NCBI GenBank assembly: GCA_043228905.1
Contig: JBHGNT010000007.1
Location: 5,518,001 to 5,582,000, forward strand
Direction of reading: 5' to 3'
DNA: 64,000 nucleotides
Origin: Azolla caroliniana
Lineage: Eukaryota; Plantae; Polypodiophyta
This document shows, piece after piece, positions 6,531 to 64,000 of this stretch (its first letter is position 1; each line of letters opens with the position of its first letter). Position numbers and translations under genes: made by a program. Below the pieces are notes generated by a model that saw only the letters and a program-made list of their open reading frames with translations, was not told where the DNA came from and did no database searches.

Positions 6531-8812
6531 TAGATTGATGTACTAAATATCGTACATTTTATTCTTGGTGTTGAAGCTAGAAACAACATAGGAATCATAT
6601 TTCGCAATCATATGTAAATGATTGAAACTACATCCGTTTTTTCGTGTTACATATCCTTGGATGAAAAAAATACTCTAAAGTCTTGATAGCTTCACATTTC
6701 TCTTTTTCTGCACTTCCAATTGTCTTTGAACTCTTGACTGTGGTATCGTGGCCCCCAAAATGAAAGGGCAGAAATAGATAGATGCTTTAACACGTCCATA
6801 ACATGCATTTAATTGGTTACATCAATAAAATTGAACCGGTGATGATAACCTGAATTTCCGCAAAATTATATAATATTATTGTTATGGCCATAACCTTACA
6901 CACCAAATGTACACACATTTATACCTTATGGATCAATATTAACAAACATAAGGCTCCTACCATGATTGATTTTTTGCTATCATTAGATGGCGTAGGGGTT
7001 GACGATAAAACTTTGAAAAAATTCTATATAAGTGACGCCAATAAGAAAAGAGATTTGATAATAGATATGGCATTGAAATGATCAAACACAAGTTATGGCC
7101 AATGGAGAGGAGGAAATGATGAAGCAATATTTGGCCACATTTCATGATGCCAATTAACCAAGCATTAAAGGACATTTCATCTCAGAACAATGAGTTGGTG
7201 GCAAATGTTGAGTTTGAGAATATCATAGATGTTTAGGTGCCTTGATAGGATATTCTCATGGCCTTCTCGATTTTCTTTGATATAATAATTATTTGTTTTT
7301 TTTCCAAGAAAAATACCATTGGTGGACTTGGTTTGCCAAGGACTTATAATGGGCCAAAATAGTTTTGATGATGAATACAATTGGCCAAAGAGATTTTTTT
7401 TATGTTATTTTCAAAAAAAATATAACAAACCATTTTGTCTTGTCTTTTTCAATAACAACTTGCTTCATATGATCCACTAAGTTCCATGATATTTTCAAGT
7501 AAGAGTGCTTTCTTTGGATTTAGGTGAATAGAACACGAAATGCAGCAAACAAACAATGATGATGGTCCCGAATGCTAAAGTACACAATCTATACAAGTTA
7601 TGCATGTGAATGTCAATTGCATTGGATATATTTTCAAGGTCATCAATTTGAATGTGGTAATTTAGGCCACTTTATGTAGAATACCGATAGGTGTTGGTAG
7701 GGCAGAGTTCTAATACTCTTCCTAATGATATAATTTGTTATGAGTGTAACCTCATGGTATAATGAACTATAATCCTTTAACCTTAATATTAGTGGGTGTG
7801 GGCTAGTTCAGAAGAAATGAAGGGGAAGGACAACGTCTAAGTATTTCACCATTTGACCACTTCTAGTAAGTAGTCAAGTGTGAATAAACAATGGCTTAGG
7901 GTTTGGGCATATAAAAGAACACTAGCTACCTTCATGAAGGTGACAAGAGTTGCTACATGGAGACTCTATTAGTGTGGCAAAGCTCTAGATACATATCTGT
8001 GTTCTTCCTTCAAATCCAAGTTATAATCCATGTTCATACTCGGTGGAATGGGGCATCGATCTATCTCTCGCATTCACCAAGGGTTGGGGTAGACTAGCAT
8101 ACTTTCTTCCTTATTTCTTCCTTATTTTATTTGCTTAAGATTAATTGAGATTCTTATACCATTAATAGTGTTGGGAAATGTCCCTCTGGTGGGAGGAACC
8201 GACTATTTGGGCAAGAAGTGCCGACAGTCGAAGACAAGGAGGAGCAAACTATTCGGACCGAGTGTCGATGGTTGAAGAGTCAACTGAGTGAGCCAACAGG
8301 AAGGAGATCCAACTCGAAGACACAACCGACTAATCGGACCGACCGGATGGTCGATGACCAGGCTAACTAGTCGGACCGACCAGACAATCGACACTAGAGA
8401 CGGTTGATGGCTACTTATTATTATAGATAATAATAGTAGTGATGTGTAGTAGGGGCTACATTTGTAAATAGCCCATATGATGTATGGGTATAAATACATC
8501 TAGGGCAAACGAGTAGTGTGTTGTGAGCTGAGAACTGAGTGTGTGTGAGCGTGAGAGAGAGCGGCGGCAAAGTTCAGCGAACTTGCTAAGAACCCTAAGT
8601 GGGTTATCCTCTGTGTGTGTCAGAGAAGATTGTAACCGTTTTTCTGTACTCTCTTGTGTATCGTGGAATCTCTGTTCCCGTGGTTTTCCCCGTTTAGGGG
8701 TTCCACGTAAAACTGTGTATTCATGTATTTGTTGTGTTTCTGTCTTTCCGCGATATTGTATATTCCATAATCGGTTTGTCTCACGAATAGAAGGGAGCTA
8801 ATCCCATCAAAC

Positions 8813-8824
8813 TGGTATCAGTGC
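8813..8824 (+). other. Primer-binding site (tRNA-iMet type)
   Basis: TGGTATCAGTGC immediately after the LTR end (consensus TGGTATCAGAGC). Confidence 0.85.
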
Positions 8825-10790
8825 TTGAGGTGCAAGCATGGAAGGAGGTATGAGCGGCTTCCCAGGTATGATAGTTCTAAACTCACAGAACTATGCAGAC
8901 TAGACGATAAAGATGGAGGATCTTCTCATAGTCAAAGCCCAATACGAGCCGATCGACCGAGCAGAAATACCCACGGGGGTATTAGAGTCGGAATGGAAAC
9001 TTCTTAATAGAAAGGCGGTGGCCACCATTCGACAGTGCATCGATGTAAGTATCCTTCAACATGTGGCGAACGACACAAATGCCCACGAGATGTGGCAAAA
9101 GCTATCCAATCTATACAAGAGGAAGAACACTCTAAATAAATAAAACTTCACTAATGAGAAAGATCGTACAGCTGAAATATAGAGACGGTGAGAGCATTGT
9201 CGAACACATCAACACATGCATGGGGTATGTAAATCAACTTGTTGCAACCAAGTTTCCCCTTGATGATGCGATGCAGACCATCCTACTTATGTGCACACTA
9301 TCGGATAGTTGGGAGAACGTGGTGGTTACTCTCAGCACCTCCTGTCAAGAAGAGAACTTGTCTTTGCAAGTGGTGAAGACAAGCATCCTAAATGAGGAAG
9401 CGAGAAGGAAGGACAAGAGTTTCCTGTCTCATTCAGATACAAATGTGTCACAACATTCGGACAGAGGAAGGAACCGGCAAAGGAGTCCACCAAGGAGAGA
9501 AAAGTCACATGCCAAATCTAAGACTAGAGGTAAGCTAACATGCTTTTATTGTGGAACGCCTGGACATTTCCAGAAGGACTGTTGACATCTTAAGAAGGAC
9601 GAGAGTGCCGGTAATAATGTCGAACCCAGGAAGATTCCTGATGAAAAGAGCACTTTGGCCATTGCTACGAGCAATGAAGAACTCATGTTCATTTGTGAAC
9701 ATGCAAGTGCAAATCTTGCAAGTGAAGAATGCACTTGGGTGATCGACTCTGATGCATCTTTCCATATAACTCCGTCGAGAGAGTATTTCTCGATTTACAT
9801 AGTTGGTGATCATGTGTATGTAAAGATGGGTGATAATGGAGAGTGCAAAGTAGCTGGAGTCGGAAGTGTCTGGTTGACGATGTCAACGGGGTGTCGGTTG
9901 ACTCGGAAAAATGTTCGACATGTCCCCGATATTAGATTGAATCTAATATCGACTAGAAAGATGGACGACGAAGGCTACAATGGTAGCTCCCGAAACAACA
10001 AGTGGAAGCTCTGTTGTGGAAACCTCATAATGGCCAGAGCACATAAAGAAGGCACACTATACATGATGCATGCCCGACTGTGCAAGTTGGAAGCGAATGT
10101 GGCAGCCGACTCGAGTGGAGAGTTATGGCATAAGAGGCTAGGCCACATGAGTGAGAAGGGTTTGCATCTACTAGCCGACCAGAAACTTCTACCAGAAGTA
10201 AAGGAAGTGCACCTGGAGAAGTGCGTCGACTACTTAGTTCGAAAGCAGAACATAGCAACATTCCACTCAAGAACACCAAGAAGAAGAGAAGTTCCATTGG
10301 AACTAGTACACACGGATGTGTGTTATGTGAATGGTCTGCCGCATCGAGGCGGACAGTACTTTGTGGCTTTCATCGATGACTACAGTCAAAAGTTGTGGGC
10401 TTTTGTACTAAAGTCTAAGTATCAAGATTAGTACTGTCCTTTTTCAAGGCGTTCCAAGCAAGAACCGAACAGGAGTCATGTCGGAAGCTGAAGGCTATTC
10501 GAGCCGACAATGGTGGCGAATATAAAGGGCAATTTGAGGAATACTGCAAGGCCCAGGGTATTCAAATCGAATATATTGTACCAAAGACCCCTGTGTTGAA
10601 TGGGCTTGTAGAGAGGATGAAATGAACAATCATGGAGAGAGTAAGGATCATGCTCTCTCCTGCTAAACTGTTGAAATCGTATTGGGTTGAGGCGATGTAC
10701 GCAACAGTTTACCTGATCAATAGGTCCCCCTCAGTACCACTAAAAGGTGATGTCCCACAAAGGGTGTGGACAAGAAAGGATGTCTCCTAT

Positions 10791-10896
10791 TGTTAAAGTT
10801 AGCGTGCGGAAGCATATGCCAAACCGGCTCTGCCAGATAGTAACAGTAAAGAGAAGAAGGTTTAATGGAAGCTTAACACAGAGAATAAGCATACAC

Positions 10897-10938
<42 letters not shown>

Positions 10939-11273
10939 ATAAAACTCTATTTAAAAATAACACTCTATCACTCTATACATAGAATGTGCTCAGAGAGAAC
11001 TTTTATACAAGTCCATAAAGGACTATCAGAAGTACTGACAGGTACTTCAATGCTGACACGAGCGACTGTCATTGACTCCCAAAAATATGCCTACGTACTA
11101 GGCTGGATCCGTAGGCCTCTAACGGCCTACTAGTTTCAATCCAATCCGGGTCTCCGATCCGGCGCATGGTTCCGAATATCATCCGGACACCGATTCGGTT
11201 CTCCGTTCCTGATACCGATCCGGCTCTGGCTTATTCAGCTGATCTGAATCCGGTTGAGCTTGCTCACTCAACA
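10791..11273 (-). mobile_element. Solo LTR (483 bp) nested in the copia integrase
   Basis: TGTT..AACA ends with TSD CCTAT/CCTAC. Removing it restores integrase ...KDVSY|RHLRVFG. Homologous to 43470-43880, whose PPT gives the minus orientation. Confidence 0.88.
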
Positions 11274-13513
11274 CCTACCGACACCTAAGGGTATTCGGAT
11301 GGAAGGAGATATCCTCTTAGAGAGAGAAGAGCACTGACAACATATGTCAATCAATACATCCTCTTGACTGATGACGGTGAACCTGAGTGCTATGATGAAG
11401 CCATTGCCGACAAGCACAGAGAAAGATGGTTGAGTGCAATGCAAGACGAGATGGACTCCTTGCATGAATACTACACCTACGACCTAGTAGAATTACTGAA
11501 AGGTAAGAGAGCACTCAGGAACAAATGGGTCTATAAGGTGAAGACTAGTAGAGAAGTCGATAACGCACCTAGGTATAAAACCTGCATAGTGGTGACGGGG
11601 TTCCAACAGAAAAAGGGTGTCGACTTCGATGAGATATTTGCACGTCATGAAGATGACATCCATCCAAACTGTTCTGAGCATAGCTGCCAGCACGGACCTA
11701 GAGATCGAACAGTTGGATGTCAAGACGACATTCTTGCACGGGGACCTAGATGAAGAGATCTACATGCAGTAGCTCGGAGGCTTTGAAGAGAAAGGGAAAG
11801 AGAACCTAGTATGTTGACTGAAGAAAATCTTGTATGGTCTGAAGCAAGCTCCACGCCAATGGTGCAAGAAGTTTGAATCCTTCATGACGGAACATCGGTT
11901 CCAGAAAACACAGGTTGATCATTGTGTGTTCGTCAAAAGGTACGAAAAAGGTGATTTCTTGATTCTCTTATTGTTACATATAGATGACATGTTGATTGTC
12001 GGTAAAGACACAAGGAAGATCGGGAGCTTGGAGAAAGCCCTAGGCAAATCGTTTGTCATGAAAGATCTTGGACCGGCTAAACAGATCTTAGGGATGCATG
12101 TAGTTCGAGATAGAACTAAGAAAGTGTTGTGGTTATCACAACAAAAGTATGTGACAAAGATCCTAGTCTAGAGGTTCAACATGTCAGAAGCAAAGCCGAT
12201 CAGCTCTATGTTGCTGACCAACTGCAAGTTAAATGCTAAGCAAGCCCGGGAGGGGAGAAAGAAAAGGCTGAGATGAAGAAAGTACCATATGCCTCAGTCG
12301 TCAGTAGTTTAATGTACGCTATGGTCTACACGAGACCAGACATAGCATTCGATGTGGGAACAATAAACCGATATGTGAGTAATCCAGGACGAGAACACTG
12401 GGCAACAGTGAAGTGGATACTCAGGTACTTAAAGGCACCTCAGGGGTATGCCTAAGGTATGGCATCGAAAAACCCATGCTCGAAGAGTTTACCGATACTC
12501 GAGCCAATCCACGTTAAGGTACGTGATGACCTATGTAGGGGGAGCAATGTCGTGGCAATCACGACTGCAGAGGTCTGTGGCCTTGTCGACCACATAGGCA
12601 GAATATATGGCAGATGTAGAGGCCGGCAAGGAGCTGATTTGGATGAAGAGTTTCCTCAGTGAACTCGGGATGAAGCCAGAAGAATTCTAGCTCCATTGTG
12701 ATAATCAAAGTGTCATACATCTTGCAAAGAACGTTGCATACCACTCTTAGGCCAAGCATATACAAAGGAGGTATCACTGGTTGTAGATGAAGGAGATTTT
12801 TCCCTCATGAAGATCCATACATACAACAATGGATCCGACATGCTCACGAAGAACCTACCAATGGACAAACTCAGATTTTGTCGACAGAAGACAAGACTAA
12901 CCGACTCCCACCCACTTGAGTGAAGGGGTTTGTTGGGAATATGTTCCTCCAGTGGAAGGAGCCGACTGTTGAAATGATAACGTCACTAGCTTGGCAACTA
13001 AGTGATTCATGAGTCATTAGGGCCTCAAATGGCAAACAAACAACTAGCCATTGAAAATTCCTTTCTAGACTTTCTTTGGGTATCCTATACATCCTTGCAC
13101 AAGAAGACGCAAATAAACAAGACATATGTTATAAGTTACAAAGGGAGTACATGGAATGTAAGTGGAGCTTGTTCTCCCTCGACGATGTGATGTACATGGA
13201 GGTACATTAGTGTATCTCAATATAACTATAAGGATCAACCTAAAAGTCTTTGTTCAACATTAGGGATATGTATTATGTATATTATTTTTGTGCCCCTTAT
13301 TCTTAAGGATGGGTATGAACATGTGGTTTTTCAAAGTGATGTACATGGTCAAGTCATAATGGTCAAGGCTAAAGTTATGGTTCATTGGCTTTTATGTTGA
13401 AAATTGTTGTTCAATGTACTAAACTTAATTTAGTGATGATTATATGAAACCCATAATTTTTATAATAATTTTGTCAAGTGATTTTACTATAATGTTTGTA
13501 AGGCACAATCTAT

Positions 13514-23321: not shown

Positions 23322-25071
23322 TGGGGTACAAATAATGTGTGGGGTCCTCAAGGTGTAATGGACCTTCATTTTTATTATTTACCACGAGGAGCATGAGAAT
23401 CTAAGGAATTGAGGGGAGATATGATGATTCCATCCAATCTTTGATTGAGGATGCCACAAAAAAAATCAAAAGAAAGGAAGCTTTTGGGTGGGTATTCCTC
23501 TCACCTCTGACTCTTCTTCTAAGTGTTCCATATACATATGTATCTCTACATCTACATATATTCAGAAGTAACAAAAATTGGAGTGTAAAGAGAGCAACCC
23601 ACCACCTCCTCCACACCCAAAGAAGACTATATCTACATACATACATATATGTACATAACTAGCTTTTCCTCTTTTTTGCCTTTTGCCTTTTGCTTTTTGT
23701 TCCCTCCCTCACACCCTTACTTGTCTTTTTTCTTCTTTCTTTTCTTCTTTTCTTTAAGAAAAATTTCTCCTTTCTTTGTTTTTCTCTTTAAACTTAAAAC
23801 TTTTGGCTTACTTTAATTTTTGTTTCACTATGGTGTCTTTTTCTTCTTTTCTTCTTCTTCTTCTTCTACTCCTTTTTCTTCTTTTGTTGGCCTTTTGTCC
23901 TCAATTGCGGGACCCACCATGGATACTATTAGTATTATTATTTAATAGCTAATAGTCCAAAAATATAAATAAAGAAGAATATGGGGGCCCTCTGCTAATC
24001 CATGGACTTCTATCTAAATCCTCCACTAAGCACACACATCCATGATACCCTGTGAAAAGTTTAATCCACCACAGTACCTCCACTACTAAAATCCTACAAA
24101 TAGCAAAGACAACACCAAAGGCACTCAAACACTCATAAATGATAGTAAATTTATTATGAAAAAAGGAAGAGATTAATACCAAAGTATGATCCAAAATGGG
24201 AATAATGCTTAAGAACATTAAAAAAAGAGAGAAAAGAATATAGGTGAGATCTATTTGTTAATTAAAGATGATTAAATATAGGCATAAATAAATGCTGGCC
24301 AAAGGGTTGGCTTATTATAAAAAGAGATGAAAAAAAAAAACAAAGTACAAAAAAGGAGGAAAAAAAAAAACTTATTAAGTGAGTGTGTGATTGGAATTAA
24401 AGAAAACAAATCTAAAGAAGAAGAAGAAGAAGAAGAAGAAGAAGAAGAAGAAAAGGGAAAGCTTTTGAGTTTATTCTTTTATGTTTATTTTGTTCTTTTG
24501 TCTACATATGATTAATTGTTAATATATATATATATATATAATATTATTGTGATGATTATTTCTTATTTCCTAGGGGAGTAAACTAGTAAAGAAAGGGGGG
24601 AGAGAGAGAGAGAGAGAGAGTAAAATTGTATGAAATTATGAATTTGACCATTTCCTTGCTATAGCACTAACTGAATATATGTTGTATATGTGCCATGTGG
24701 GGTGGATGGGGTGGGGTCTGTGGGGTTTCCATGGCCATGCCACGCCATGCAATACAAAGGTCATGCCATGCCCTTCTTCTCCCTCAAATAATAGACCCCC
24801 CCCCCCCCCCCCCGGGGGCACCCTACCATGACCCATACCATGACCCATAACCAATAGAGTCCATAGCCATAGCCATAGCCATAGAGCTATACCCCTCCCA
24901 TTGGACCCTCCTCTTCCTCTTCCTCTTCCTGCACTTTGCTTCTTCCCTCCCTTTTCTTTCTCATTTCTCTCTTTCTCTTTCTCTTTTTCTCTTTCTCTTC
25001 TAGACTGATGAGATCTCTCTCTCTCTCTTTCCTTCCTTCCTCTATACAAACCCCCAATCCCCCTACTGTTA

Positions 25072-27180
25072 ATGGAGGTTTCAGAGCACCGCCACCACCA
25101 TAGCCACCGCCATCATGACGCCGCCGCCACCGCCACCGCTAATGTCAGCGCCGCCGCCACTAACAACAACATCAGTATAATGACCTCCTCCATCTCCGCC
25201 TCCACCTCCTCCGCTGCCGCCTCTACCACCCCTCACCATCACCATCAAACCCATCAAACCTCTAACAGCCTCACTATCGACGCCTCGCTCGCCATCGCCA
25301 TACCTAACCCTAGCGCCACCACTAGCCACCACCACCACCACAACCACAACAACAACAACAACAACAACAACTTCCATAGTAGTAGCAGTAATAGTAGCAA
25401 CCATATCCCTGTGCTTGGCTTCATTACCACCACCACCACCGCTAACTCTCCTTCCGCCGCCGCCGCCGCCACCTTGAATCATGATCTGCTCAGCCATGAC
25501 CTGCTGCTCTCCAATGGCAACCCCGGCGGCGGCGGCGGCATCGCCAACTCCAGGTTGCTGACCAATGCCAACACCACCTCTACCTTGGCCAAGGCCTCCT
25601 CCTCCGCCTCCGCCTCTGCCTCCGCCTCCGCCAATCCTGCGTCGGCCCCGCCCAAGCGTAGCTCCACCAAGGACCGCCACACCAAGGTGGACGGGCGCGG
25701 CCGCCGCATCCGCATGCCCGCCGCCTGCGCCGCCCGCATCTTCCAGCTCACCCGCGAGCTCGGCCACAAGTCGGACGGCGAGACGGTGGAGTGGCTGCTC
25801 CACCACGCCGAGCACGCCGTCATCGCCGCCACCGGCACCGGCACCATCCCGGCCTCCTTCCAGACCTCCGGCGGCTCCATGCGATCCACCTCCTCCAGCC
25901 TCTCCGCCCCGCTGCACACCCGGATCATCAATAACCTGCTCCCGCCTCTCCATCCCGCCTTCCCAACCAATCACCTGCTCACCCACGCCTCCGCCGCCGG
26001 ATCCGGCTCGCTCGGCGCGTTGTCGGTTCTGGGCGGCCGATCCGATCACCACGCCAATATGGCCGCGGCGGCGGCGATGCAGGAGAGATCATCGGCACGC
26101 ACTGCCGCCGCCGACTTGTCGTCGACGCCGTCCTGGGATCAGATGCAGCAGGCCGGCCGATCGGTGGCCTTATCCATAGGGGGTGGCGACCACCATCAGC
26201 AGCAGCAGCTCCACAGCATGTCGCTAGGGCAAGCGCTGCAGGAGCCTATCATGCCGCGATCTTCCGGCAGCTTCCAGCAGCAGCACCACCATGACAGTGC
26301 GCTGAACATGGGCGGCGGCGGCGGCGGAGGAGGAGGAGATCCCAATCCAGGAGACGGCATGGGCCGCGATCATTCGAGCGCCGCCGCTGCCGCCACTGTC
26401 TCGGAGTCGAGGAAGAGATCGCGGGGATCTAGCGCTAACAACAGCAGCCTGAGCGTGGTGAAGGAGGATCCACAGGCTCAGCACGGCCATGGGGAGCCCA
26501 CCCGATCGTTGCTTCCGCCCAGCGTAAACATGTCCGCCACCGCCAGCGCGTCCAGATCCTCCCCGCTCACTCACAGTACTCACGCGGCGGCGGCGGCGAC
26601 GACGACGACCTCAAATCTGATGCCCATGTGGGCGGTGGGCCCAGCTGGTACCCCGGCCAATCTCAACGCGGGTCTCGTGCCGGTGCCACCAGCCTTCTGG
26701 ATGCTCCCGGTGGCCGCGGGCGGGTCCGGCACGTCGGGGCCGGGGTCAAATATGTACCCGGGAGTGTCTCACCTCCACGGGGCGATGCCGATGGGCGTGG
26801 CAGGGGGTCCCATATCCTCCGCCCACGAGCCAATTTGGACGTTCCCGACCTCGGCAGGCGGGGTCCCAAACGGGGCCGTGTATCGGATGGCCACAGGAGC
26901 GGGGCCGGGCCCCGATTCGGAGGCAGATAACAGCAACAATCCATCAGCAACGGCAATGGCAGGTGTGAACACGGCGATGGTGCCGATAATGCCGGGACCG
27001 GGGGCAGGTGTCACGTTCATGCACCGGCTGGGGGGGATGGGGTATCATCCTCATCATCACGAAATGCCGGGTCCGGCTGCTGCGTATGGGCACATGGTGT
27101 CGGGCGGGGGTGTCGTGCTACCATCCATGGTGTCGGGGCTAGGCCTAGACACTTGGGTATGCTTGCATCTTTCAATATGA
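25072..27180 (+). CDS. TCP: Class I (PCF-type) TCP transcription factor, 702 aa as read; true C-terminus probably in another frame ending at 27329
   Basis: TCP domain [67 protein letters not shown] with the class I signature. Also PMWAV, AFWMLPV and IWTFP motifs, long His/Ala/Asn/Gly runs, and a GC-rich island. Confidence 0.95.
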
Positions 27181-32845: not shown

Positions 32846-33382
32846 ACCCATGTCAAAAATGGAGTCGCATCCCCTTTTGGTTCATTTGCCACATATTCAT
32901 GAAGACTTTATCAACCTCCAAAATCAAAGCTCTCCTTTCTTCTTCCAATGGTTTTGGCTTCCATTCTTGAAAGTTGTGTTCAGTTACACCAACCTTGGGT
33001 AGCACACGGTGGCAACACTGGTGTCCTCTTCCTCTTCACATCTCTACTCTGTTGTATCTTTGGGCCCGACTTCACCCTGTTTTGCTCCTGCACACTCAAG
33101 GCCTTTTTCTTGCATTTTGTTTGTTGGTCTTGAGTTTGATTTGTAACTTCTAACTTGCAACCTTCTCTCTCTACCTTAGTTCTTGTTGCTACTTCTTTGG
33201 TTAGGTTGCCACATCTACCTACAAAATTAGACAGGTTATGCCACATGCTTCATCTACATTTTGTCGCCAGTGATTCATACCATTTAGTCTTTGCAACATC
33301 AACAAAAATGAACATAATCCACCAAACAATGTGAATGGAGCCCCTTGATTGAGTAATTGGCCTTTTCCCCAATGGTGCCCCC

Positions 33383-33770
33383 TGTCATAGACATGATGCG
33401 ACGATGGAATGTAGGGGGTTGAACCCATGACCTCCTCATCTTATTGGGCAACCTTACCAATTGAGCTACATCCATCTATGCACCGATGTATACGATTCAA
33501 TTTATTACATTGTATATTAATCACTAGAAGTTTCCTAGCTTTCATGCATCCTCGTGAATTTTCTAGAATATTCCTAGTTTCATGTATACCTCCACATTAT
33601 TGTATAAATACTTGGGTATACCTTGATTACAATCAAGGTGAACAACACCAGTTACGGAAGCATAAATTCAGTTCTTGTTCTCTTGTCTATTTTCTCTCTC
33701 TTTTCTTGTTCTGTTGTCTATGCTCTCTCTCTCTCTCTTAATAATTTGCCTCGTCTACTCGTCCGTGACA
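33383..33770 (+). mobile_element. Solo LTR (388 bp) with an antisense tRNA-like module at its 5' end
   Basis: TGTCA..TGACA ends with TSD CCCCC (33378-33382 and 33771-33775). TATAAATA near 33604 and (CT)n near the 3' end. Same layout as the chromovirus LTR at 61010-61427. Confidence 0.82.
33405..33474 (-). promoter_or_regulatory. tRNA-like sequence (Pol III A- and B-box) inside an LTR
   Basis: Minus strand reads TGGATGTAGCTCAATTGGTAAGG..GAGGTCATGGGTTCAACCCCCTACATTCCA. D-arm/A-box and T-arm/B-box are recognisable with complementary ends; the anticodon arm is degenerate. Confidence 0.7.
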
Positions 33771-33827
33771 CCCCCTTATTTAGCCTTTTTCTAGACGATT
33801 GCCCAGTTTGCTTGGCCTCTTACCTAT

Positions 33828-36651
33828 TGAGATTGAATCTCAGATATGTGAGAAAGACCAACTCGGATATAGTACACAATAACTTGGAAAACAGAAAACA
33901 ACACAGTACACGAAATACACAGAGTTTTATGTGGAAACCCTAAACGGGAAAACCACGGGAACAAAGATTCCCCTATACAAATAGAGAATACAAGAGGAGA
34001 TTAGAATACAACACTCTCTGTATAGAGTGTTGTTACTGTACGAGATGTATAGAGAGTAGAGTGTGATGAGCGAGGGTGCGTATGTGTAGATGTGCACAAG
34101 TGTAATTTTGAGTGTGAGTAAATATGTATGTGAACACATGCACATGTGTGCGCATGTGGACGAATATGAGGAGCTGTGAGTGAGTGATAAGTGTGAATGG
34201 CCAAGGGGGCTTGCACCCCTGTGTATCTACCCTTTTGTAACTATTTAACCCCTTATGGGGAAGGAATGAATATATGAATAGTTCTCTCCCTCTCTCTCTC
34301 TTGTCATCTCTCTTTCTCTCTCTTCCTTCTCTCTCACGTTGAACCATGTGTGCATGTGTTCACATACGTATTGACTCACACTCACAATTACACTTGTGCA
34401 CATCTACACATACACACCAACAACATTATAGCATTCGACCCTCGCTCATCACACTCTACTCTCCGTACATCTCCTACGGTAACAAGTGTATCAACCACAC
34501 AGGTCTCTTGGCGTCTAAGCTCACTTAGCTATGGCACTGCTCACTCTCTCTCTCTCTCTCAACACACAGCACTTCGCTATGTTCTCCTTTTTGTTCTACT
34601 ACTGCGCCACACATAATACTATGTTTTGCCCAAAGTGTAAATTTTGTACTTATACACTTTATGGGCTATTTACAATTGTAGTTCCTACTACTATCACTCC
34701 TATTATTAGAGTAATAATAATGGCAGTTAAACGGTCGACTGGTCGACTAGCCAACGCCTGTGTCAATTGTCCAGTTGGCCCAACTAGTCAGCCTTATCGT
34801 CGACCATCCGGTCCGCCTGACTAGTCGGTCATGTCTTCGACTTGGATCACTTCCTATACTATCGACTCCCCTTTGTCATCGACTCTCGACTCTCTGTTCG
34901 ACCAGTCGGCTACTCCTTGTCTTTCAAGACTGTCGGTTCTCAATCTGACCAGTTCGCTCCTCCTTGTCTTCAATTGTCGGTTCTCAGTCCGATCGGTCGG
35001 CTCCTCCCAACAAACTCCCCCTTCACTGCTATGGGTGGAGTTGGTTAGCCCTGTCCTCTGTCGACAGACTCTGAGTCTGTCCATCAGTAGGTTATTTGTC
35101 AACATGTCGAATCCATTGTTGCCAATATGGATCTTCACCAGGATAAACTCTCCTTCTTCCACTTTCTCCCGCAACCAGTGATACCTCCTATATATATGTT
35201 TGGTCGAAGAGTGGTACGCAACATTCTTGGCTAGATGTATGGCGCTCTAGCTATCACAATGAAGCAAGAACTCCCTTTGCTTCATTCCCAACTCACTAAA
35301 AAAGTTTCTCAACCAAATCAGCTCTTTGTCGGCCTCTACCGTTGCTATATACTCTGCCTCTGTGATCGAGAAGGCCACAAACTTTTGCAGTCGTTATTGC
35401 CACAACACTACTCCCCTTGAATAGGTCATCACGTACCCTGAAGTGGATCGATTTGAGTTTATATCCCCCGACATGTCCGAGTCAGTAAACCCTTCAAGCA
35501 TAGGTTTTACAACACCATACCTTAGGCATACCCTTGAGGTACCTTTCAAGTACCTGTGTATCCACTTCACCACTGCCCAGTGTTCTCGTCTTGGATTACT
35601 CATATATTGGCTTACTGCTCCCACAACAAATGTTATGTATGGTCTTTTGCAGACCATAACATATATTAAACCGTCGACGGCCGAGGCATATGGTACTTTC
35701 CTCATCTCACCCTTTTCTTTCTCTCCTCTAGGGCATTGCTTAACACTCATCTTGCAATTTGTCGGCAACATAGAGCCGAACGGCTTCGCTTCTAACATGT
35801 TGAATCTCTCCAAGATCTTTGTCACATATTTCTCTTGTGACAACCACACCACCGTCTTCGTTCTATCTCGAACTATGTGCATCCCCAAGATCTATTTAGC
35901 TGGTCCAAGACCTTTAATGGTAAACGACTTGCCTAAAGCTTTCTTCAAGCTCACGATCTTATTTGTGTCTTGTCCGACTATCAACATGTCATCCACATAT
36001 AATAAGAGAATTAAGAAGTCACCTTCATCGTAGCTCTTTACGAATACACAATGATCAACCTATGTTTTCTGGAACTTATGTTCCACCATGAAGGACTCAA
36101 ACTTCTTGTACCATTGGCGTGGAGCTTGTTTTAGACCATACAAACTTTTCTTCAGTCGAGGCACCAGGTTCTCTTTCCCTTTCTCCACTGTCAAAGCCTT
36201 CAGGTTGCTGCATGTAGATCTCTTCATCCAACTCCCCGTGCAAGAATGTTGTTTTGACATCCAACTGTTCGATCTCCAGATCCATACTAGCAGTTGCAGC
36301 TATGCTCAGAGCAGTTTGGATGGATGTCATCTTTACAACTGGTGCGAATATCTCGTCGAAGTCGACACCCTTTTTCCGCTGAAACCCCTTCACCACAATG
36401 CGGGCTTTATATCTAGGTGTGTTGTCGACTTCTCTAGTCTTCACCTCGTAGACCCATTTATTTCAGAGTGCTCTCTTACCTTTCAGTAACTCTACCAGGT
36501 CGTAGGTGTAATTCTCGTGCAAGGAGTCCATCACATGTTGCATTGTGCTCAACCACTACTCCTTGTGCTTGTCGGTAATGGCTTCATCATAGCACTCAAG
36601 TTTACCTTCATCAGTCAAGAGGATGTATTAACTGGCATATGTCGTCGGTGC
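33828..36651 (-). mobile_element. 5'-truncated copia remnant, same family as 8169-12967 (RT, RNase H, PPT, 3' LTR)
   Basis: RT/RNase H fragments closely resemble 11330-12930. PPT gtgaagggggag precedes the LTR start at 35012. The LTR (about 33828-35012) matches the reverse complement of 8169-8809, e.g. ttcccgtggttttcccgtttagggtttccac. The left boundary is approximate. Confidence 0.85.
34031..34484. mobile_element. 454-bp insertion with TGTTAC..GTAACA ends, ~120-bp inverted terminal arms and a 5-bp TSD (foldback solo LTR or TIR element)
   Basis: TSD AGTGT at 34026-34030 and 34485-34489. Arm 34031-34148 matches the reverse complement of 34345-34484 apart from scattered substitutions and one ~22-bp indel. 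Confidence 0.8.
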
Positions 36652-40142: not shown

Positions 40143-42635
40143 TTATTTCCCTTTGCTTTCTTCATTTGTTATTAATTTCAGTAATGTTTGTTGGACTCTG
40201 ACATCACGATCTATCGTCACAATCAAATCAAGTAGTTTCCGTGCTTCTTGTAATTTGCCTCCTTTGCATAATCCTTGAATCAAGGTTGAATATGTTACAA
40301 GGCTTGGTTTAAGTCCTTTCCTCACGAGATCTCTAAATGTGGAAATTGCTAGATCATATCTATCTATCCAAAAATAGCCTTCTATTAACTGAGTATAAGT
40401 CACAAGATCAGGATTACATCCCTCCCTGCCCATGCTTTGCATTAATTCTAAGGCCTTGTCGATGAAGCCACCTTTACACAGACCTTTCATGACCACGTTA
40501 TATGTTACAATATCAGGAATATGTCCACTCTCAACCATCAATTGGAAAGAGTAAATTGCATCACTGCTCCGGCCAGACGTGAAAAGCTCATCTATCAATG
40601 TGCTGAATACATGGTTACTTAGTTTATAGCCCTTAGTCCTCATCTCATTAAGGAGATTCAAGGCATGATCAAACATTCCTTGTTTGCATAACCAGCTTAT
40701 AACCGTAGAATAAACCCCAACGTTCCGTTTCTTGTCACTTTGCAGCAGTCCTTTGAGGGTAGAAAGAGCCTTATCGCGACATCCTGACTGCAAAAAGCCT
40801 AGTATGAACACTTTACATGTAACAGTATTTGGAGTGCAACCTTCTTCCACCATTCTCTCAAAAAACAAGAGAGCTTCGTTTGTTCTATTTACTCTAAGTA
40901 GCCCACTTAGTATCGTATTGTGAGTCATAACATCGATGGAATAGCCCTTCTCTCGGAACTTATCATACATGGCAAGTGCAGCATCTGCTCTTTCAAGCTT
41001 GAACAATGCATCAAGCATCTTGTTAGGCATTTTCGTTTGAGGATCAAAACCCTTACCTCTCATTTCATCCAAAACTTTGATAGCATCATCCATCTGGCCA
41101 TTCTTTATGAGCCCATTTATAAGGATATCATAAGTAAGCCCATTAGCATCACAACCTTGATTCCGCATTTCAGAGAGTATAGAAGTAGCTCTTTCAGGTT
41201 GACCCACCTTAAAGGAACATTCAATCACTGCATTAAAAGCCCTAATACTTGGTCCAAAGCCTGTTGTTGAGAGATCTTCCAAAAGTTCAAATGCCTCATC
41301 TATCTTTTCTTCATTGCATAACCACTTGATCACAATATTATAGGTCACAATAGTAAGAAGCCCCCTCTCCTTCATCAGTTTGAAAATTAAGATTGCTGTC
41401 GTAGCTCTCCCTTCCTTGAAAAGCGCATGGATCAAAGTATTGCAAAGTTTGCTATCAGGATCCAACCCAGCAGTAACCATAGTCTTAAAGAATGCTACTG
41501 ATTCATCAAGCTTTCGAAGCCTACAAAACCCATAGATCAATATCCTGAATGTTACCACATTAGCGAAACAACGCAGGTGAAGCATCTCCTTTAGAGTTTC
41601 CATTGCTTTGTCATCTTTTCCATCTTTGAGGTATCCATCCATAAAAGCATGATAAATGTAGCGATTTGGAGGGCAATTCCTCTCTTGCAAGCAAATTGTA
41701 AGTTTCCTAGCTCTTTTAAAATCGCCACTTCTACAAAGAGCAGTAACCAAAGTAGCAGCAGTCATACTATCGGGGATACAACCACTTTCCAGCATCTGAG
41801 AGAATGCCGAGAAAGCACTGGTAAGCCTCTTTGCATTCACCAAAACACTTATATACTCTCGATAAGTCATTGAGGTGGGTCTACATCCATGATCTTCCAT
41901 AGCATGAAAAGTTTTGATTGCTTCAGGAACAAGATTTGCCATGCCGTAGCTTCTTATAAGCACATTGAAAGGGATGTCATTCAAAGGTATGCCTTCATTA
42001 TTCATGTTTTGGATCATTTTCTGTATGGATTTGAAATCGTGTGCTTCTCCAAGAAGCTTGATAAGAGCATTGTATGTGTGTTGATCATGTGCAAAGTACT
42101 TTTTCTCTCTTATCCATTCAAAAAGACGAAGGCCTAAATTTGGGTTAGATATTGATTGAAGAATCTCAATGAGGTTCGAGGAACCCATATGCGACGAGAA
42201 GAGCTCTGCGAGAGACAATTCAAGACTATAGCTCCATACCTCGTTCTCTTTAAGACGGGAAAGAACTTCAAAGAGCTTTTCCGGCAGCATATCTTGATTA
42301 TATTGTGCATTTCTTGGTGATGGCACTGATGGTGGTAGTGATGATGATATGTATGGTGATGATGGTGGTATGCTAGATGATGATGTTATGTTTGACAACG
42401 ATGATATGCTTGATGATAACGGTGATGATGAAATGCTTAAAGACAGCTTGTTTGATGCTGTCAATGTGATTCCATGGCCTAATTTCTTAATATTGCAAAC
42501 AGAGATGGAAGATAAAGGGAAGCTTTTCTGTGAAGGCAGCAAAGGGGAAGTTACCTGGGTGGAGCTATGCAGCGATGGAGATGAAGATGGAGGAGCAAAG
42601 GATGAAGAGAAGTCTGTACGACTGTGGAGTAACAT
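40143..42635 (-). CDS. P-class pentatricopeptide repeat protein, 830 aa, probably organelle-targeted
   Basis: Single intronless ORF with a Ser/Pro-rich N-terminal extension. About 17-18 tandem 35-aa repeats by length (TYNALIKLLG, PDIVTYNVVMKGLCKGG, PSLVTYSTLIQGLCKGGK). No E/DYW domain. Confidence 0.95.
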   Translation of the reverse strand: MLLHSRTDFSSSFAPPSSSPSLHSSTQVTSPLLPSQKSFPLSSISVCNIKKLGHGITLTASNKLSLSISSSPLSSSISSLSNITSSSSIPPSSPYISSSLPPSVPSPRNAQYNQDMLPEKLFEVLSRLKENEVWSYSLELSLAELFSSHMGSSNLIEILQSISNPNLGLRLFEWIREKKYFAHDQHTYNALIKLLGEAHDFKSIQKMIQNMNNEGIPLNDIPFNVLIRSYGMANLVPEAIKTFHAMEDHGCRPTSMTYREYISVLVNAKRLTSAFSAFSQMLESGCIPDSMTAATLVTALCRSGDFKRARKLTICLQERNCPPNRYIYHAFMDGYLKDGKDDKAMETLKEMLHLRCFANVVTFRILIYGFCRLRKLDESVAFFKTMVTAGLDPDSKLCNTLIHALFKEGRATTAILIFKLMKERGLLTIVTYNIVIKWLCNEEKIDEAFELLEDLSTTGFGPSIRAFNAVIECSFKVGQPERATSILSEMRNQGCDANGLTYDILINGLIKNGQMDDAIKVLDEMRGKGFDPQTKMPNKMLDALFKLERADAALAMYDKFREKGYSIDVMTHNTILSGLLRVNRTNEALLFFERMVEEGCTPNTVTCKVFILGFLQSGCRDKALSTLKGLLQSDKKRNVGVYSTVISWLCKQGMFDHALNLLNEMRTKGYKLSNHVFSTLIDELFTSGRSSDAIYSFQLMVESGHIPDIVTYNVVMKGLCKGGFIDKALELMQSMGREGCNPDLVTYTQLIEGYFWIDRYDLAISTFRDLVRKGLKPSLVTYSTLIQGLCKGGKLQEARKLLDLIVTIDRDVRVQQTLLKLITNEESKGK

Positions 42636-42676
42636 CTCTGAGTTGTACCCCTAGGTGCTCTTTCTCTTTCTTTCAA

Positions 42677-49300: not shown

Positions 49301-52300
49301 TCCAAATATATTAGAACACCAATACAATATATGACTAGAAAAGAAAAAGTTACTTTATTGATCAAATTTCAACATGCATACATACATCCATAGTCAAAGC
49401 TGTGAATTATCATAAAATGGGGGGCTTCTATAAGAGATTGTGATTGGTAGTTCCACCTGTTGACAAGTTTCAGCAGTGCTAAAAATTTATTTCAGTTTAA
49501 ATCATTTGAACATATCATCCAATGTCAGCAAGGTATGGATGTGGTAACAGTCCAAAATCAATCCAATCAGAGACTATCAAGATTTATGTAGTCTAAATTT
49601 TCAAAAAACATAATACATGATTACATATTACTATTGTAATGGTTCACTGTAATACATATTCAAGTTCATTGTAAGTTACCACTTGTATAGCATAACATGA
49701 GAAAGAAAGAAACATATATTAACATCTTTTAAAAGGCCAAAGTGGCCTATAAAACCAAACAAGAGATTACATCGTGAGTGTTGTCAGAACCATATTTCTG
49801 GCACTTAACCCAAGGTATATATCTAGCATCCAACACTATGTTTGGCCAAACAACCACTCCACCCAGATGATAGGTCTATCTCTTGCTTAATTGTATAGTT
49901 TTGTGTTTGTAACATGCTCCTCAAGGTGGCACATCACATTTCATGGTTATAGGAATCAGTGCAGAAGCAAAACATACCACTAATCAAGAAATCTAGCCCA
50001 TTGATAAACAGCCACTCACTTCTCATGACATTACCCACAAGAATTCAACCATTGGCACCAATGCTTTCTTCTTTCTTGACCGCAAAGCACACAATCCTAA
50101 CGTGGATTAAAGATCCAACCATTCTAGCGAAGAAAAGAGCATACTGAACTAATCAAAACCTCCATATACATTCGTGTACATTACCAAGAGAAACCAGCAT
50201 TCGTAGGACCATAGGGTTTCCTTTACTTCCCTTCAACCATTTTTTGATGCAACAACCCCAACTTGTCCAATAGAATCTGTTGGGAATAAAGGGCCATCGT
50301 GCCTTTTATTAGTGCACGAGTGTGAACGCACTTGTAGCACACTTGACTTGTATATACATAATATCTAAAAACCAAAAAAGAGGTACACTCTTTGTACCCA
50401 AGACAGTGTGCATTTCCCTCTCACTCAGACTCTCTCCCTCTCTGTTTTTTACCTAAACCCTAATCCTCGTGCTGCCTTCAAACTGGTATCAGAGCTGAGT
50501 TTAGGGTTTTCTGCAGAGCAGATTTAAGGTTTTCTGCAGAGCTGAGTTTAGGGTTTTCTGCAGAGCAGAGTTTAGGGTTTTCTGCAGAGCAGAGTTTAGG
50601 GTTTTCTGCAGAGCAGAGTTTAGGGTTTTCTGCAGAGCAGAGTTTAAGGTTTTTTGCAGTGCAAAGTTTAGGGTTTTTTGCAGAGCAGAGTTTAGGGTTT
50701 TCTGCAAAGCAGGTCACGTTTTCTGCAAAGCAGGTTTGGTCCTCCGTTTGGGCTAAGAAATCATGACTAGCAACAGTGACAGTAGCCACCTTATGCACAT
50801 CAAGAAGCTTGAGGGTGCACATAACTTTGCGGTTTGGAAAAAGCAGTGCTACAACATCCTGCTGCAGAAGAAGCATGCAAAGCCTATTAAAGTCAAAGGG
50901 GTAAAGCCTACAGATATGGACGAAGATGATTGGCAAGAGTTGAACAAGCTTGCATGCTCAAATATTGAGTTGTCGATTTCTAATGCCTTGCTATTTAATA
51001 TTGAAGGTTTGGATTGTGCCTATTCTATATGGACTAGACTAGAGGAACTGTATGCCCAGAAGACGGCAGCAAGCAAAGTTTATTGGCTTAAAAAACTTAT
51101 GGATTTGCGTTGACAGAGGGCACACCCATGTCAACTCACCTGAGTGTGTTCAATTCCATTTTCAGCCAGCTGGTTGCCTTGAAATTCATCATTGATGATG
51201 AGTTTAAGGCCACGTTTTTACTTTGCACCTTGCCAGAAAGTTGGGATACTTTCAAGACTGCTATGAGCAATTCAAATGCGATGCTTCTTTATGCCGATGT
51301 AGAGAGTTCTCTACTAATGGAAGAGTTGAGTTGGCAAAATAATGCATCCAATAAGTCCTCTAGTGCATTGCATATGAGGGGTAGGTTACAACAAAGAGGC
51401 AAATCTGATAGTTATGGCCGTAGTAAATCACGTGGTAAAGATGTAGAATGCCATCACTGTGGCAAAAAAGGTCACTTTAAACGTGATTGTTTCAAATGGA
51501 AGAAAGAGAAAGGAAAAGGCAAGAAGATAGATGGTTGCATAGAAGAAAAGAGAGACATTCAACCGAGGAAAGGCATTGCAGATACGAATAGTGACATGCA
51601 CACTTGGTTACTCGATTCCGTGCTTCTTTCACGTCACCCCTCATCGTGAGTGGTTTTCAGATTACACAGGGGGTCGACATGGTGTTGTCCATCTTGGGGA
51701 CAACTATGCATGTGAAATCGCAAGTATTGGCACTGTGCAATTACAGTTTCAACGTGGTTCTGCTTTCACACTTCAGCATGTACGGCATGTACCTCAGGTC
51801 AAGAAGAGCTTGATTAGCACAGGACAGCTAGATGACGATGGATTTCACACCACCTTTGGTGATGGGAAATGGAAGATTTGTAAGGGATCTAGAGTTATTG
51901 CCAAGGGTAGTAAAAGTGATACTTTGTATCCTCTCCATGTATCTAGTGTGAGTGACCATGTCGTTGCCATAACCGAGCAGCCTAGTGTTTCTTTGTGGCA
52001 TGGGTGGCTGGGACACATGAGTGAAACTGGTATGAAAGTATTGTCTCGTTTGGGTTACTTACCATGTCTTCGTTATGCTGATTTTGAACATTGTGATCAT
52101 TGCATTTATGGTAAACATGTACAAACATCTCATAAAAAATCTCTTTCGCTGAAGTCATCCCCGCTTGAGTTAGTACATTCACATGTTTGTCAGATGCCAG
52201 GGCTATCATTAGGGGGAAAGAAATACTTAGTCACTTTTGTCGATGATGCTACACGGAAGGTATGGGTTTACCCTATTCATAGCAAGGATGAAGTGCTCAA

Positions 52301-55300
52301 CAAATTTCGAACATTTTTGGCATTAGTTGAGAATCAAATTGATAAGACACTTAAGTGTCTTTGGTCTAACAATGGTGGGGAATATGTGTCCAAGACCTTT
52401 CAAGCATTTTGTGACAGCAAAGGGATAAAGAGGGAACTCATTGCCCCTTATAATCCACCCCAAATTGGAGTTGCAGAGTGTATGAATCGGACCATTCAAG
52501 ATAAGGTCCGTACTATGCTGTATCATGCTGCGTTACCCCATGGTTTTTGGGCAGAGGCTGTTATGACAGCTGTTCACTTGATTAATCGGTTACCTAACAG
52601 GTCTTTGGGAGGGGGAATACCCCAAGAAGCGTGGTCGGGCAAGCCACCTTCATATGCTCACTTGAGAGTGTTTGGCTGTGAGGCTTTTGTGCACATTCGT
52701 AAAGAAGAATGCAACAAACTTGAGCCAAAGTCCTGCAAATGTATTTTCTTAGGATACGGTGACAAGGGTGAAATGGGGTATAGATTGTGGGATCCCGAGA
52801 AAAGAAAAATAGTACGCAGCAATGATGTTATCTTCCGGGAAAATCGCATGCATAAACAACCCGAAAAGACCGAGGAAGTACGGAGGGTTGTATTCCGAGA
52901 AGAAATACCTTTTAGACAGAAAAATGTGCCCACTGTACAGCAGCAAACACCTGCTGTAAACTTACCTGCAAATGCAGAAAATGAGGTTGGAAATGATCAG
53001 CCAGCCTTTGCCAATAATGATGAGCCACCAAATGTGCAGGAATGGCTAGAACAGCAAGCTGTTAATGCTGATTTGCAGGCTGAAATGCCTGGACAGCAAG
53101 TTGAAAATGATGATTTGCAGGCTCAACAGCTACCAAACAATGAGCATTGGGTTAGGAGATCGTCTAGAGTTACTAGAAGGCCTGACAGATTTGTTCCTGA
53201 TGCAAACAGTGTGGCTGATTATATCATGGTAACTGATTGTGGCGAACCGACTTGCTTCAAGGAAGCAATGGACAGACAGGACAATAAGAAATGGTATAAA
53301 GCCATGTTTTCAGAGATGGAATCTCTTGAAAAAAATGACACTTGGGATTTGGTGCAGTTGCCTAAAGGGCAGAAAACACTTCCATGCAAATGGGTTTATA
53401 AAATGAAGGTCATTTCTAATTCCTCGCCAAAGTACAAAGCAAGATTGGTTGCAAAAGGATACAAGCAGGAATATGGAGTTGATTTTGATGAGATCTTCTC
53501 ACCTGTAGTCAAGATGACTACATTAAGAATCATTTTGGGCTTAGTTGCAACTGAAGATATGGAGCTCATACAGATGGATGTGAAGACCGCCTTTTTACAT
53601 GGCGATCTACATGAAGACATATATATGCAGCAGCCTGAAGGTTTTGTGGCTAAAGGCAAAGAGAAGATGGTTTGTAAGCTCAAAAGGAGTTTGTATGGGT
53701 TGAAACAAGCACCAAGAGAATGGTATCATAAATTTGATGCATTTATGCAGTCTCAAGGTTTTCGTACAAGTCAAGTGGACCACTGCTTGCACACGAAGAA
53801 GGCAGGAGATGGTAGCCTGATTATCTTGGTTTTGTATGTTGATGATATGTTGATTGCTGGCAAGGATATTCATGCCTTGGATTCATTGAAGCAAAGCCTT
53901 CATGGAAGCTTTGATATGAAGGATCTTGGTGATTCAAATCACATCCTTGGCATGCGAATACTCCGAAACCGGTCGAAAGGGGTACTCTTTCTATCTCAGC
54001 AGGAGTATATCTCTAAGGTTTTGCAATGTTTCAATATGGAGGGGGGGGAACAATTGGGGTTCCATTACCTCCATATTTGAAACTCAGTGCAGAAGACAGC
54101 CCTACATCTGATGCTGAGAAGGCTGAAATGACTAAGGTTCCATATGCTTCTGCCGTTGGCAGTTTGATATATGCGATGGTTTCTACACGCCCTGATATTG
54201 CTTTTGAAATGGGAGTGGTTAGTAGGTACATGGCAAATCCCGGCAAAAAGCATTGGGAAGCGGTGAAAGGTATTATGAGATACCTCAAAGGCACAAAGGA
54301 CTTGGGCATTTGCTTTGGAAAGCAAAAGGCATCTGTCGTTGGTTTTACGGATGGGAACTATGCTGGTCACACAGACTGCAGGAAGTCTACTTCTGGGTAT
54401 GTGTTTACTTTCACAGGAGGAGCGGTCTCTTGGATCTCCAGACTACAAAAGTGTGTTGCATTGTCTACTACAGAGGCAGAGTATGTTGCTGCCACTGAGG
54501 CGTGCAAAGAGGCTTTATGGCTTTCATATCTAGTGAGAGATCTTGGCATTACAGAGTTACCTATTCTTCATTGTGACAGCCAGAGTGCTATCATGCTAGC
54601 TCGGAATCCCGTCTTTCATGCAAAGACGAAGCACATAGAGGTGAAGTATCACTTCATCAGAGATGTACTTGACAGCAAGAACATTGAGCTTGTCAAAGTA
54701 CATACAAATAATAATCCTGCAGATCTTCTCACGAAGGGTCTTCCAGCTGAGCGATTTGCTCATTGCCGACAGATGATGGGAGTTGGATAGATGTATGTAT
54801 GCAGTTCAGCTTTGTACATACTTGGACTTAGCTCACTTTTTTTTTGTTTTTTTTTTCTCACGGCACATTGCCTTTAGGTGGGAGGTTGTTGGGAATAAAA
54901 GGCCATCGTGCCTTTTATTAGTGCACGAGTGTGAACGCACTCGTAGCACACTTTTGACGTGTATATACATAATATCTAAAAACCAAAAAAGAGGTACACT
55001 CTTCGTACCCAAGACAGTGTGCATCTCTCTCTCTCACTCAGACTCTCTCCCTCTCTGTTTTTGACATAAACCCTAATCCCCGTGCTGCCTTCAGAATCTT
55101 AATCCAATTTTGATCCAAACACCTACAACAATAAACTTGCAATAAATTTGAATCATCTTTGAATGATTGGTTTCTATTGATACACTACTCAGTTTCTCGA
55201 TTCATAAGAGACCTTTGATCTCGACGATTGCATGCATGATATGGGGCAAAGCATCAATGCCTCATTATTTAATTCAGGTGGAGATGGAAGCAGTTCCAAA

Positions 55301-63209: not shown

Positions 63210-64000
63210 TGTCGTAGTGTATTTTGTACACTACGTGAAAAACTTATAAAGTACCAATTTAATAAATATGAATAAATAGTAGAAAATATTAAAATTTATA
63301 TAACATACATAGGGCAAGATTCGAACCTTGCACCTCCATGTTACACTAGCATTACACTAGCATTTCATTCATATCAAAAAACATAGATGTCCCACGTAGA
63401 AAGGTAAGTTCACGTAGGATAAACTTTAGTTAAAAGAAAAACGCATGCTAAAAGAAAAAGTTACGCATGCACATCTAGCGTGCATGAACACTATAGTTGA
63501 TAAAAAACGCACAAGTTAGAAAAAGCATGATCACTTTAGATAAAGCATATAGTCTATCTATAGGAAAAGCATGGAGTCTATAGTTAGAGAAAAAAAGAAG
63601 AAGCATGGATTCCTAAGACTCCCTCATCACTACATAAGGATGGGGAGCACAATGTAATAGGTGTGTGAAATATTTGGAAATTGGATATATTTCCGAAAAC
63701 ACCAACCGATTAATATAATTGTGGGATTCACGAAAATAATATAATCTATACTTGTGGGATTCACAAGTTTCGTATATCTTTCTTTCAATCTAAATACATA
63801 TTCTTATCTAAATATTGATTAATTGAATACAATACACTTGTGGGATTCACGAAATTTCTATCTCTCTTTCTAATAATCCATTCATTACTAGCCTCATCTC
63901 ATATTCTTCTTTCTCCTAGTCCAAAACCTCAGTGGTTCCCACCCGACTCACACAAACGATCCGGAGCCGAACGGCACAACACATTTGGTGAACCCGACGT
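63210..64000 (+). mobile_element. 5' LTR (about 63210-63983) and tRNA-Trp PBS of an element nested in the chromovirus
   Basis: The chromovirus coding sequence stops abruptly at TGTCGTAG (63210). The LTR ends ..CAACACA and is followed by TGGTGAACCCGACGT at 63986-64000, complementary to the plant tRNA-Trp 3' end. Confidence 0.78.

Follow-up and report, generated by a model that had tools for sequence, protein, structure and literature searches.

An antisense tRNA-type A box/B box pair in the LTRs of Tcn1-like chromoviruses, traced from a 64-kb window of Azolla caroliniana

The window, meaning the whole 64,000-nt stretch of DNA that was analysed, covers positions 5,518,001 to 5,582,000 of contig JBHGNT010000007.1 (assembly GCA_043228905.1) of Azolla caroliniana. 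It contains host genes for a TCP transcription factor in which long homopolymer tracts occur (25012–27180) and for a PPR protein (40143–42650) whose flowering-plant matches reach only 24–29% identity, as well as a conserved-looking exon at 3493–3849. Copia-type elements or fragments lie at 8300–12900, 34760–36650, and 50278–55061, and a palindromic repeat at 34075–34418. Two chromovirus-related LTRs, at 33383–33770 and 61010–61427, are the subject of this study.

The first is a solo LTR of 388 bp from a chromovirus-related family, running from TGTCA to TGACA and flanked by the target-site duplication CCCCC at 33378–33382 and 33771–33775. A contig of run X7 links 33377 directly to 33771, consistent with an empty site, and together with the ends and the duplication it bears out the solo LTR proposed in the preliminary description. 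The plus strand is taken as sense because of a Pol II TATA box at 33603–33610 and a CT-rich end. Upstream of the TATA box is a heat-shock-element-like GAA/TTC array (33556–33573), recognised by a general consensus without a control. The motif CAACACCAG at 33643–33651 comes after the self-primer at the R start in the clade and in SM-Tcn1. This motif places the solo LTR in the clade, as does its TATA-R stretch, which is identical at 44 of 53 nt to an LTR (locus L066) found behind a polypurine tract (PPT) and a chromodomain remnant. The primer-binding site (PBS) predicted for the solo LTR's family was found in 0/88 loci. Genes lie ~6–7 kb away on either side, and the surroundings are not obviously heterochromatin.

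The U3 of the solo LTR contains a tRNA-derived module at 33404–33474, on the minus strand and directed out of the LTR. Its A box TAGCTCAATTGG (33457–33468) is 31 nt from the B box GGTTCAACCC (33416–33425), with the variable-loop relic AGGTC, conserved clade-wide, at 33429–33433. All three parts are on the minus strand, as had been claimed. A profile made without the solo LTR still detects this module with an E of 2e-6.

The second LTR is the 3' LTR of a minus-strand, 5'-truncated, Tcn1-like chromovirus, which belongs to a very high-copy family and has Pfam matches to SH3_Tf2-1, Chromo, and rve. The element has disrupted RNase H and integrase reading frames (62164–63243), an integrase C-terminus with an SH3-like domain and chromodomain (61420–62061), and a PPT (61428–61439) adjoining the LTR, giving the gypsy order with a C-terminal chromodomain. 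The aromatic cage positions of this chromodomain are Y, W, and Y and align with the HP1 family, an alignment made for the window element only. The R start of the LTR (61199–61209, minus strand) is complementary to the family's PBS and represents a self-primer. At the start of the LTR, on the plus strand and thus antisense to the element, are an A box TAGTCTAATGG (61358–61368) and, 33 nt from it, a B box GGTTCGAGTC (61402–61411), so the recurrence of the antisense layout claimed for this LTR is confirmed. The two window LTRs belong to different families, and the longest exact match shared within their modules is 13 nt. The 61-kb family was found in 6040 contigs of run X2, with a depth over the module equal to that of the rest of the LTR, and common variants in its A box sit at tolerated positions among the 40 of 104 variants listed. 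Six contigs of the possible RNA run X21 match this LTR, which carries no weight on expression.

Two further structures were seen at this LTR. A long hairpin at 61345–61427, in which the former anticodon arm pairs with the T arm, folds with z of -3.3 and -4.8 on the two strands and is not clade-wide. An inverted repeat at the transcription start (61199–61220, and also in L029, L031, L039, and L052) creates B-box-like words on both strands; it could be a self-priming hairpin or a second TFIIIC-like site. A looser third copy of the module had been claimed at 63311–63362 in the same orientation, and neither part of this claim holds. The site is an isolated B-box/T-arm hairpin (63313–63336, minus strand) outside any LTR and away from an LTR start, lacking an A box, with a profile E of 0.19 and a relative orientation opposite to that of the adjoining chromovirus.

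Relatives were fetched with an integrase-chromodomain protein query, which is blind to the module. The best 80 of 143 were kept, giving 77 distinct loci at 48–94% identity; all of these plant loci come from one assembly series, in which high-coverage contigs represent many collapsed copies. Each of the long high-coverage loci examined (11/11) has a CCHC gag frame and a pol of 1183–1234 aa. The PBS matches the R start of the element's own LTR at 15 of 16 sites, 12 of those over 12 nt, as scored in the relatives; the window copies show no PBS of their own. These PBS/R-start pairs fall into four covarying types, whose changes are not tracked by the U3 box. In several loci (L004, L009, L012–L017, L031, L039, L069) the self-primer complement is 12 nt long and starts mostly 26–27 nt below the TATA box. 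Judged by these features, the carriers are Tcn1-like chromoviruses that are autonomous and self-priming and combine a Pol II TATA box with an HP1-type chromodomain.

This assignment agrees with the accessible text of Neumann 2019 (PMC6317226), which gives self-priming and aromatic-cage traits for Tcn1. The carriers share with the Tcn1 clade a group I chromodomain with an aromatic cage and a self-priming PBS (PMC2864245, PMC6317226, PMC3350952, as far as available), in addition to a TGTCA...TGACA LTR of 415–490 bp, CAACRCCAG at R, and gag and pol in two frames. Their pol stretches and layout resemble those of SM-Tcn1 in the available part of supplement S3 of PMC2864245, a likeness judged by eye without formal phylogeny. 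In the same supplement the SM-Tcn1 PBS can, by eye, pair over 12 nt with the R start of the same element; the accessible text of PMC2864245 reports no evidence of self-priming, while Neumann 2019 predicts self-priming for most Tcn1. The carriers differ in their Pol III boxes, which the accessible passages of PMC2864245, PMC6317226, and PMC3350952 do not mention, and by eye the U3 of the SM-Tcn1 LTR, as available, contains tandem repeats but lacks the module.

Some contigs (L009, L012–L017, L031, L039) have a 3' LTR followed immediately by a PBS and gag, reflecting either tandem arrays that share LTRs or a collapsed assembly. Records labelled as bacterial genomes or MAGs (L078–L088) also contain chromovirus sequences, most likely through eukaryotic contamination. 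Among viral contigs, a protein search found no relative, and 34 pattern matches had no retrotransposon homology.

The LTR start could be mapped in 69 of the 77 loci, and adding two second elements and the two window LTRs brought the total to 73 LTRs. The 67 that reach at least 110 nt group into 29 clusters when 75% identity is required. The counts exclude 8 unmapped and 6 short rows, although L010, L063, and L067 among them are profile-positive for the module. The pair test sought, within the first 125 nt, a B box of the general consensus GGTTCRANNC with no more than one mismatch and an ARTGG core 30–36 nt upstream. The antisense pair was found in 21/29 cluster representatives and 55/67 LTRs, against 0/29 clusters and one of 67 LTRs for the sense-strand pair. 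In the following 125 nt the antisense pair was found in 0/26 and the sense pair in 1/26, and 300 shuffles of the test gave a mean of 0.27 and a maximum of 2. Since the ARTGG core and the search interval of the test were picked after the LTRs had been inspected, independent checks of the test matter. Positions unused for selection agree with the tRNA layout, with T8 in 17/21, a purine at 9 in 21/21, a pyrimidine at 11 in 20/21, G46 in 20/21, and T47 in 21/21, counted on an alignment (also used for the stem counts below) in which the solo LTR row sat one base off. The spacing from A to B box is 32 (4) or 33 nt (11) in 15/15 clusters with an exact A core within the tested interval; five other exact A cores are scattered. 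For comparison, two genuine tRNA genes in L036 have a spacing of 33. G10 of the textbook A box is retained in just 6/21, so the promoter may be weak.

Of the eight clusters that fail the pair test, four have a low-coverage single copy as their representative, and in several a deletion, duplication, or break is seen. The 50 nt upstream of the A box are 66–90% AT in all 21 positive clusters, and beyond this stretch many families have GAA/TTC arrays and then the TATA box. The arrays resemble heat-shock elements in 13/29 clusters, by a general consensus without a control and with several clusters too short to show them; the clade may be heat inducible. The module is absent, by eye, from the SM-Tcn1 LTR and was not found in 11 distant loci (32–54% identity, five with a visible LTR start). 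It therefore marks a sub-clade, and Tcn1-type elements can live without it. The preliminary description had argued against a chance SINE insertion, and this is upheld by the recurrence of the pair across clusters, by boxes conserved far above the spacer, by the presence of the module in most family members, and by the absence, by eye, of a target-site duplication and tail of the module's own.

Change rates were estimated by parsimony on a tree of 28 integrase ends from the 35 high-coverage loci, with seven near-duplicates dropped and L074 partly out of frame. Fixed B-box positions changed 1.14 times per site, the A box 1.86, the variable loop 2.6, and the spacer 6.25, compared with 6.19 for 31 fourfold-degenerate sites and 1.65 for second codon positions on the same tree. 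These rates indicate that the boxes are held about as tightly as second codon positions while the spacer drifts neutrally, and the boxes are thus conserved above background, changing ~3–5 times more slowly than the spacer and the fourfold sites. The letters that vary are exactly the positions left free in the promoter consensus (10, 12, 57, 59, 60). No change was counted at G46 and T47 of the variable loop, a constancy that the textbook promoter consensus leaves unaccounted for. Mean identity is 0.88 in the boxes, a figure inflated by row selection, and 0.41 in the spacer. Both boxes are exact in 24/35 high-coverage (multi-copy) contigs versus 6/28 low-coverage (single-copy) contigs, and among 63 LTRs the B-box CpG occurs 28 times in the tolerated CA form and three times in the box-breaking TG form; the rows in both counts are kin and not independent, and the CpG count has no strand-bias control. 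With good confidence, the LTR site is a selected Pol III-type element.

What is conserved is a promoter layout and not a tRNA. A tRNA gene was considered for the solo module and rejected: ARAGORN found no tRNA there, with a lowered threshold giving noise, an Rfam scan of the whole 64-kb window returned no tRNA, and on a 141-nt piece containing the module the tRNA model scored 11.6 bits with an E of 8, below the cut-off of 29. The module folds with a z of -1.3. Across the aligned modules, stems in register are paired in 40% (acceptor), 42% (anticodon), 60% (D), and 65% (T) of cells against 40% by chance, and sliding the cloverleaf by one column pairs equally well (50.1% vs 50.3%). RNAalifold predicted no pair on the aligned modules. 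A conserved cloverleaf was rejected on these grounds. A weak covariation score, matched or exceeded in 3/500 shuffles, may reflect a remnant or kinship. No conserved terminator was found downstream of the module in 18 clusters, where a T4 run lies within the LTR in 8, is absent within 400 nt in 4, and a T5 run occurs within 100 nt in 1. The tRNA-like module with pairing ends that had been described therefore stands as to its promoter layout but not its tRNA fold, and the expected conservation of boxes and stems holds for the boxes alone. Without covarying stems, the module is a promoter relic rather than a tRNA-like RNA, and as neither cloverleaf nor terminator is conserved, selection acts on the DNA boxes and not on a tRNA.

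Until now, Pol III boxes in LTRs have been described as the promoter of tiny non-autonomous elements. The preliminary description had cited Cassandra as precedent; Pol III promoters in LTRs are indeed known, but on the available sources the closest case is not Cassandra but Helenus (TRIMp3; Kojima 2024, PMC10886601). As described in the accessible text, Helenus likewise has a tRNA-derived LTR sequence with conserved boxes A and B in a mostly non-functional tRNA, solo LTRs with 5-bp duplications, and a proposed origin by SINE insertion into an LTR (PMC10886601). It differs in being a short, non-autonomous TRIM under about 1.3 kb without coding capacity, whereas the carriers here encode gag-pol, as seen in the long high-coverage loci (the internal part of the solo family is unseen). 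In the LTRs given in the available supplement passage, Selaginella Helenus-1_SMo among them, the Helenus boxes are sense and are considered to drive the RNA of the element itself, whereas the boxes here are antisense and directed away from the element. The Helenus PBS is tRNA-primed as described, in contrast to a PBS complementary to the element's own LTR. In the same accessible text, Kojima 2024 expects Pol II to serve the autonomous partners of Helenus and remarks in passing that tRNA-like pieces occur in "not a few" Repbase LTRs, in a study limited to elements under 1 kb (PMC10886601).

Cassandra and Ajax, in the available descriptions, are non-autonomous and have a 5S rRNA-derived (type 1) promoter that drives the genomic RNA (PMC10886601, PMC7215508), unlike the antisense tRNA (type 2) layout in autonomous elements seen here; Rfam scans of the window and of the 141-nt piece gave no 5S rRNA match. 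Tj1 and Ty3 share the link of Tf1-like self-priming elements to the Pol III machinery, but insert beside Pol III genes and are not described as box carriers in the accessible part of PMC4600332. The available text of PMC3601003 mentions neither polymerase III nor a B box. A search of the accessible full-text literature, which did not extend to subscription papers and Repbase notes and in which most hits were judged from their search entries, returned no account of autonomous plant chromoviruses with antisense A/B boxes in their LTRs. The antisense tRNA-type box pair across a sub-clade of predicted autonomous Tcn1-like chromoviruses thus appears to be new.

How chromoviruses stay expressible inside heterochromatin is an open question, and an outward-facing, selected pair in autonomous Pol II elements needs an explanation other than an element promoter. 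In their antisense orientation the boxes cannot drive the genomic RNA, which is served by a TATA box of its own and depends on a precise 5' end for self-priming. Box letters and spacing are selected without a selected RNA fold or end, which suggests a DNA site for TFIIIC. Barrier activity of tDNAs is documented in yeasts and animals; a literature search found none for plant LTRs. We tentatively propose, with almost an even chance of being right, that the pair at the outer U3 edge binds TFIIIC and TFIIIB and serves as a chromatin boundary behind which the Pol II promoter of the LTR stays open in heterochromatin. An ancestor in this plant sub-clade would have captured a tRNA gene or SINE head. 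TFIIIC on the B and A boxes would place TFIIIB on the AT-rich sequence that separates the module from the enhancer/TATA region. New copies are likely directed into H3K9-methylated chromatin by the chromodomain, so copies with a boundary at the flank-facing edge would be favoured there, staying expressible and thus being those that replicate. Any Pol III RNA would leave over the LTR edge as a by-product.

Parallels exist in the accessible parts of the literature. In yeast, TFIIIC cannot bind without the B-box cytosine, and Pol III complexes serve as barriers and insulators and dampen Pol II (PMC4228148), while the group I chromodomain of MAGGY binds H3K9me2/3 (PMC3350952). The proposed boundary resembles the yeast tDNA/TFIIIC boundaries in having a B box with an invariant C56 as key determinant and in its proposed product-independent role (PMC4228148, as available). 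The yeast boundaries are, however, experimentally shown host loci, whereas here a mobile element would carry the putative boundary. The LTR pair allows a sharp test on one invariant B-box base, and of whether tDNA-type insulation works in plants.

The boxes may instead form a working Pol III promoter, with antisense RNA or local damping tuning element expression or copy number. The 3' LTR would then read across the PPT into the chromodomain coding region and the 5' LTR into the flank. Both boxes persist at the tRNA spacing, more than a site relying on the B box alone would require, an AT-rich platform lies upstream, and yeast Pol III complexes repress nearby Pol II promoters (PMC4228148, accessible text). 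However, the terminator counts above reveal no conserved end and the transcript's sequence and fold are unconserved, making this reading rather unlikely. Another possibility is that the conserved letters work at the level of the genomic RNA, where U3 in its sense form would pair with the invariant D-, variable, and T-loops of host tRNAs or with the element's own 5' end to aid packaging or strand transfer. Analogies are the bipartite PBS of Ty3 and the tRNA-like motif in the HIV-1 U3. U3 does lie in the genomic RNA beside the PPT, the variable loop and T loop make a near-contiguous conserved stretch, and several families have a B-box-like self-primer. Against these points, the clade self-primes, the U3 box does not follow the four PBS types, and the letters vary where the promoter consensus is free, while rigid spacing better suits a DNA-binding factor. 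We consider pairing in the RNA improbable; a bipartite tRNA PBS as such is weakened by self-priming.

TFIIIB on old LTRs might also serve as a landing pad, drawing further copies of the same element, or of a different Pol III-targeting one, to safe nested sites. Tj1, a self-priming relative of Tf1, inserts upstream of tRNA genes according to the accessible text of PMC4600332. Nevertheless, among 19 off-position profile hits and 18 listed LTR ends, a small short-read sample, no element end falls at a fixed distance upstream of a module, and neither window copy is inserted beside a module or tRNA gene, leaving this idea only a slim chance. Barely less improbable is that the module is a functionless passenger, as a SINE or tRNA relic, or a look-alike site for a Pol II factor. 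The closeness of the solo module to a high-copy non-LTR repeat and the 8/29 clusters that fail the pair test fit such a reading. Nonetheless, slowly changing boxes and their identity relative to the spacer (the box value being inflated as stated) speak against a passenger, and two separate boxes at tRNA spacing are improbable for an unrelated factor. The neutral passenger reading is largely refuted.

If the boundary proposal were correct, the lineage would pair its heterochromatin-seeking chromodomain with a portable tRNA-gene insulator, and each insertion and each solo LTR would plant a TFIIIC/TFIIIB boundary. Given the very high copy numbers observed, these LTRs would be a main source of the host's Pol III factor sites and chromatin borders, with LTRs and non-LTR repeats exchanging tRNA heads, an extension that we regard as doubtful. 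A non-LTR repeat at 1700–2161 of the window carries tRNA-like heads on both strands, and its minus-strand head (2119–2159) matches the solo module at 90% identity across 42 nt. The solo module scores better against this repeat, which is also present in L037, than against any LTR cluster. Either the solo family renewed its module from the repeat or the repeat took the module from the LTR, and exchange with a SINE/MITE-like element may have taken place in this family. Read-contig depth shows an excess over the solo module, which is by itself no proof of a SINE as the TATA-R stretch shows a similar excess.

Genuine tRNA genes were also encountered. In L036, two convergent genes (Asn, 553–626, and Thr, 832–905) lie beside an element fragment; tRNA-gene targeting was rejected as an explanation, the junction being an internal break and not an LTR end. 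In the non-LTR repeat, at 1700–2161 and at 300–540 of L037, two convergent tRNA-like heads with an A-B spacing of 31–32 surround an AT/CT-rich spacer. The repeat is partly tandem in the window, has CT microsatellite flanks in L037, and is apparently high copy; it is possibly a microsatellite-associated MITE or a pair of SINE heads.
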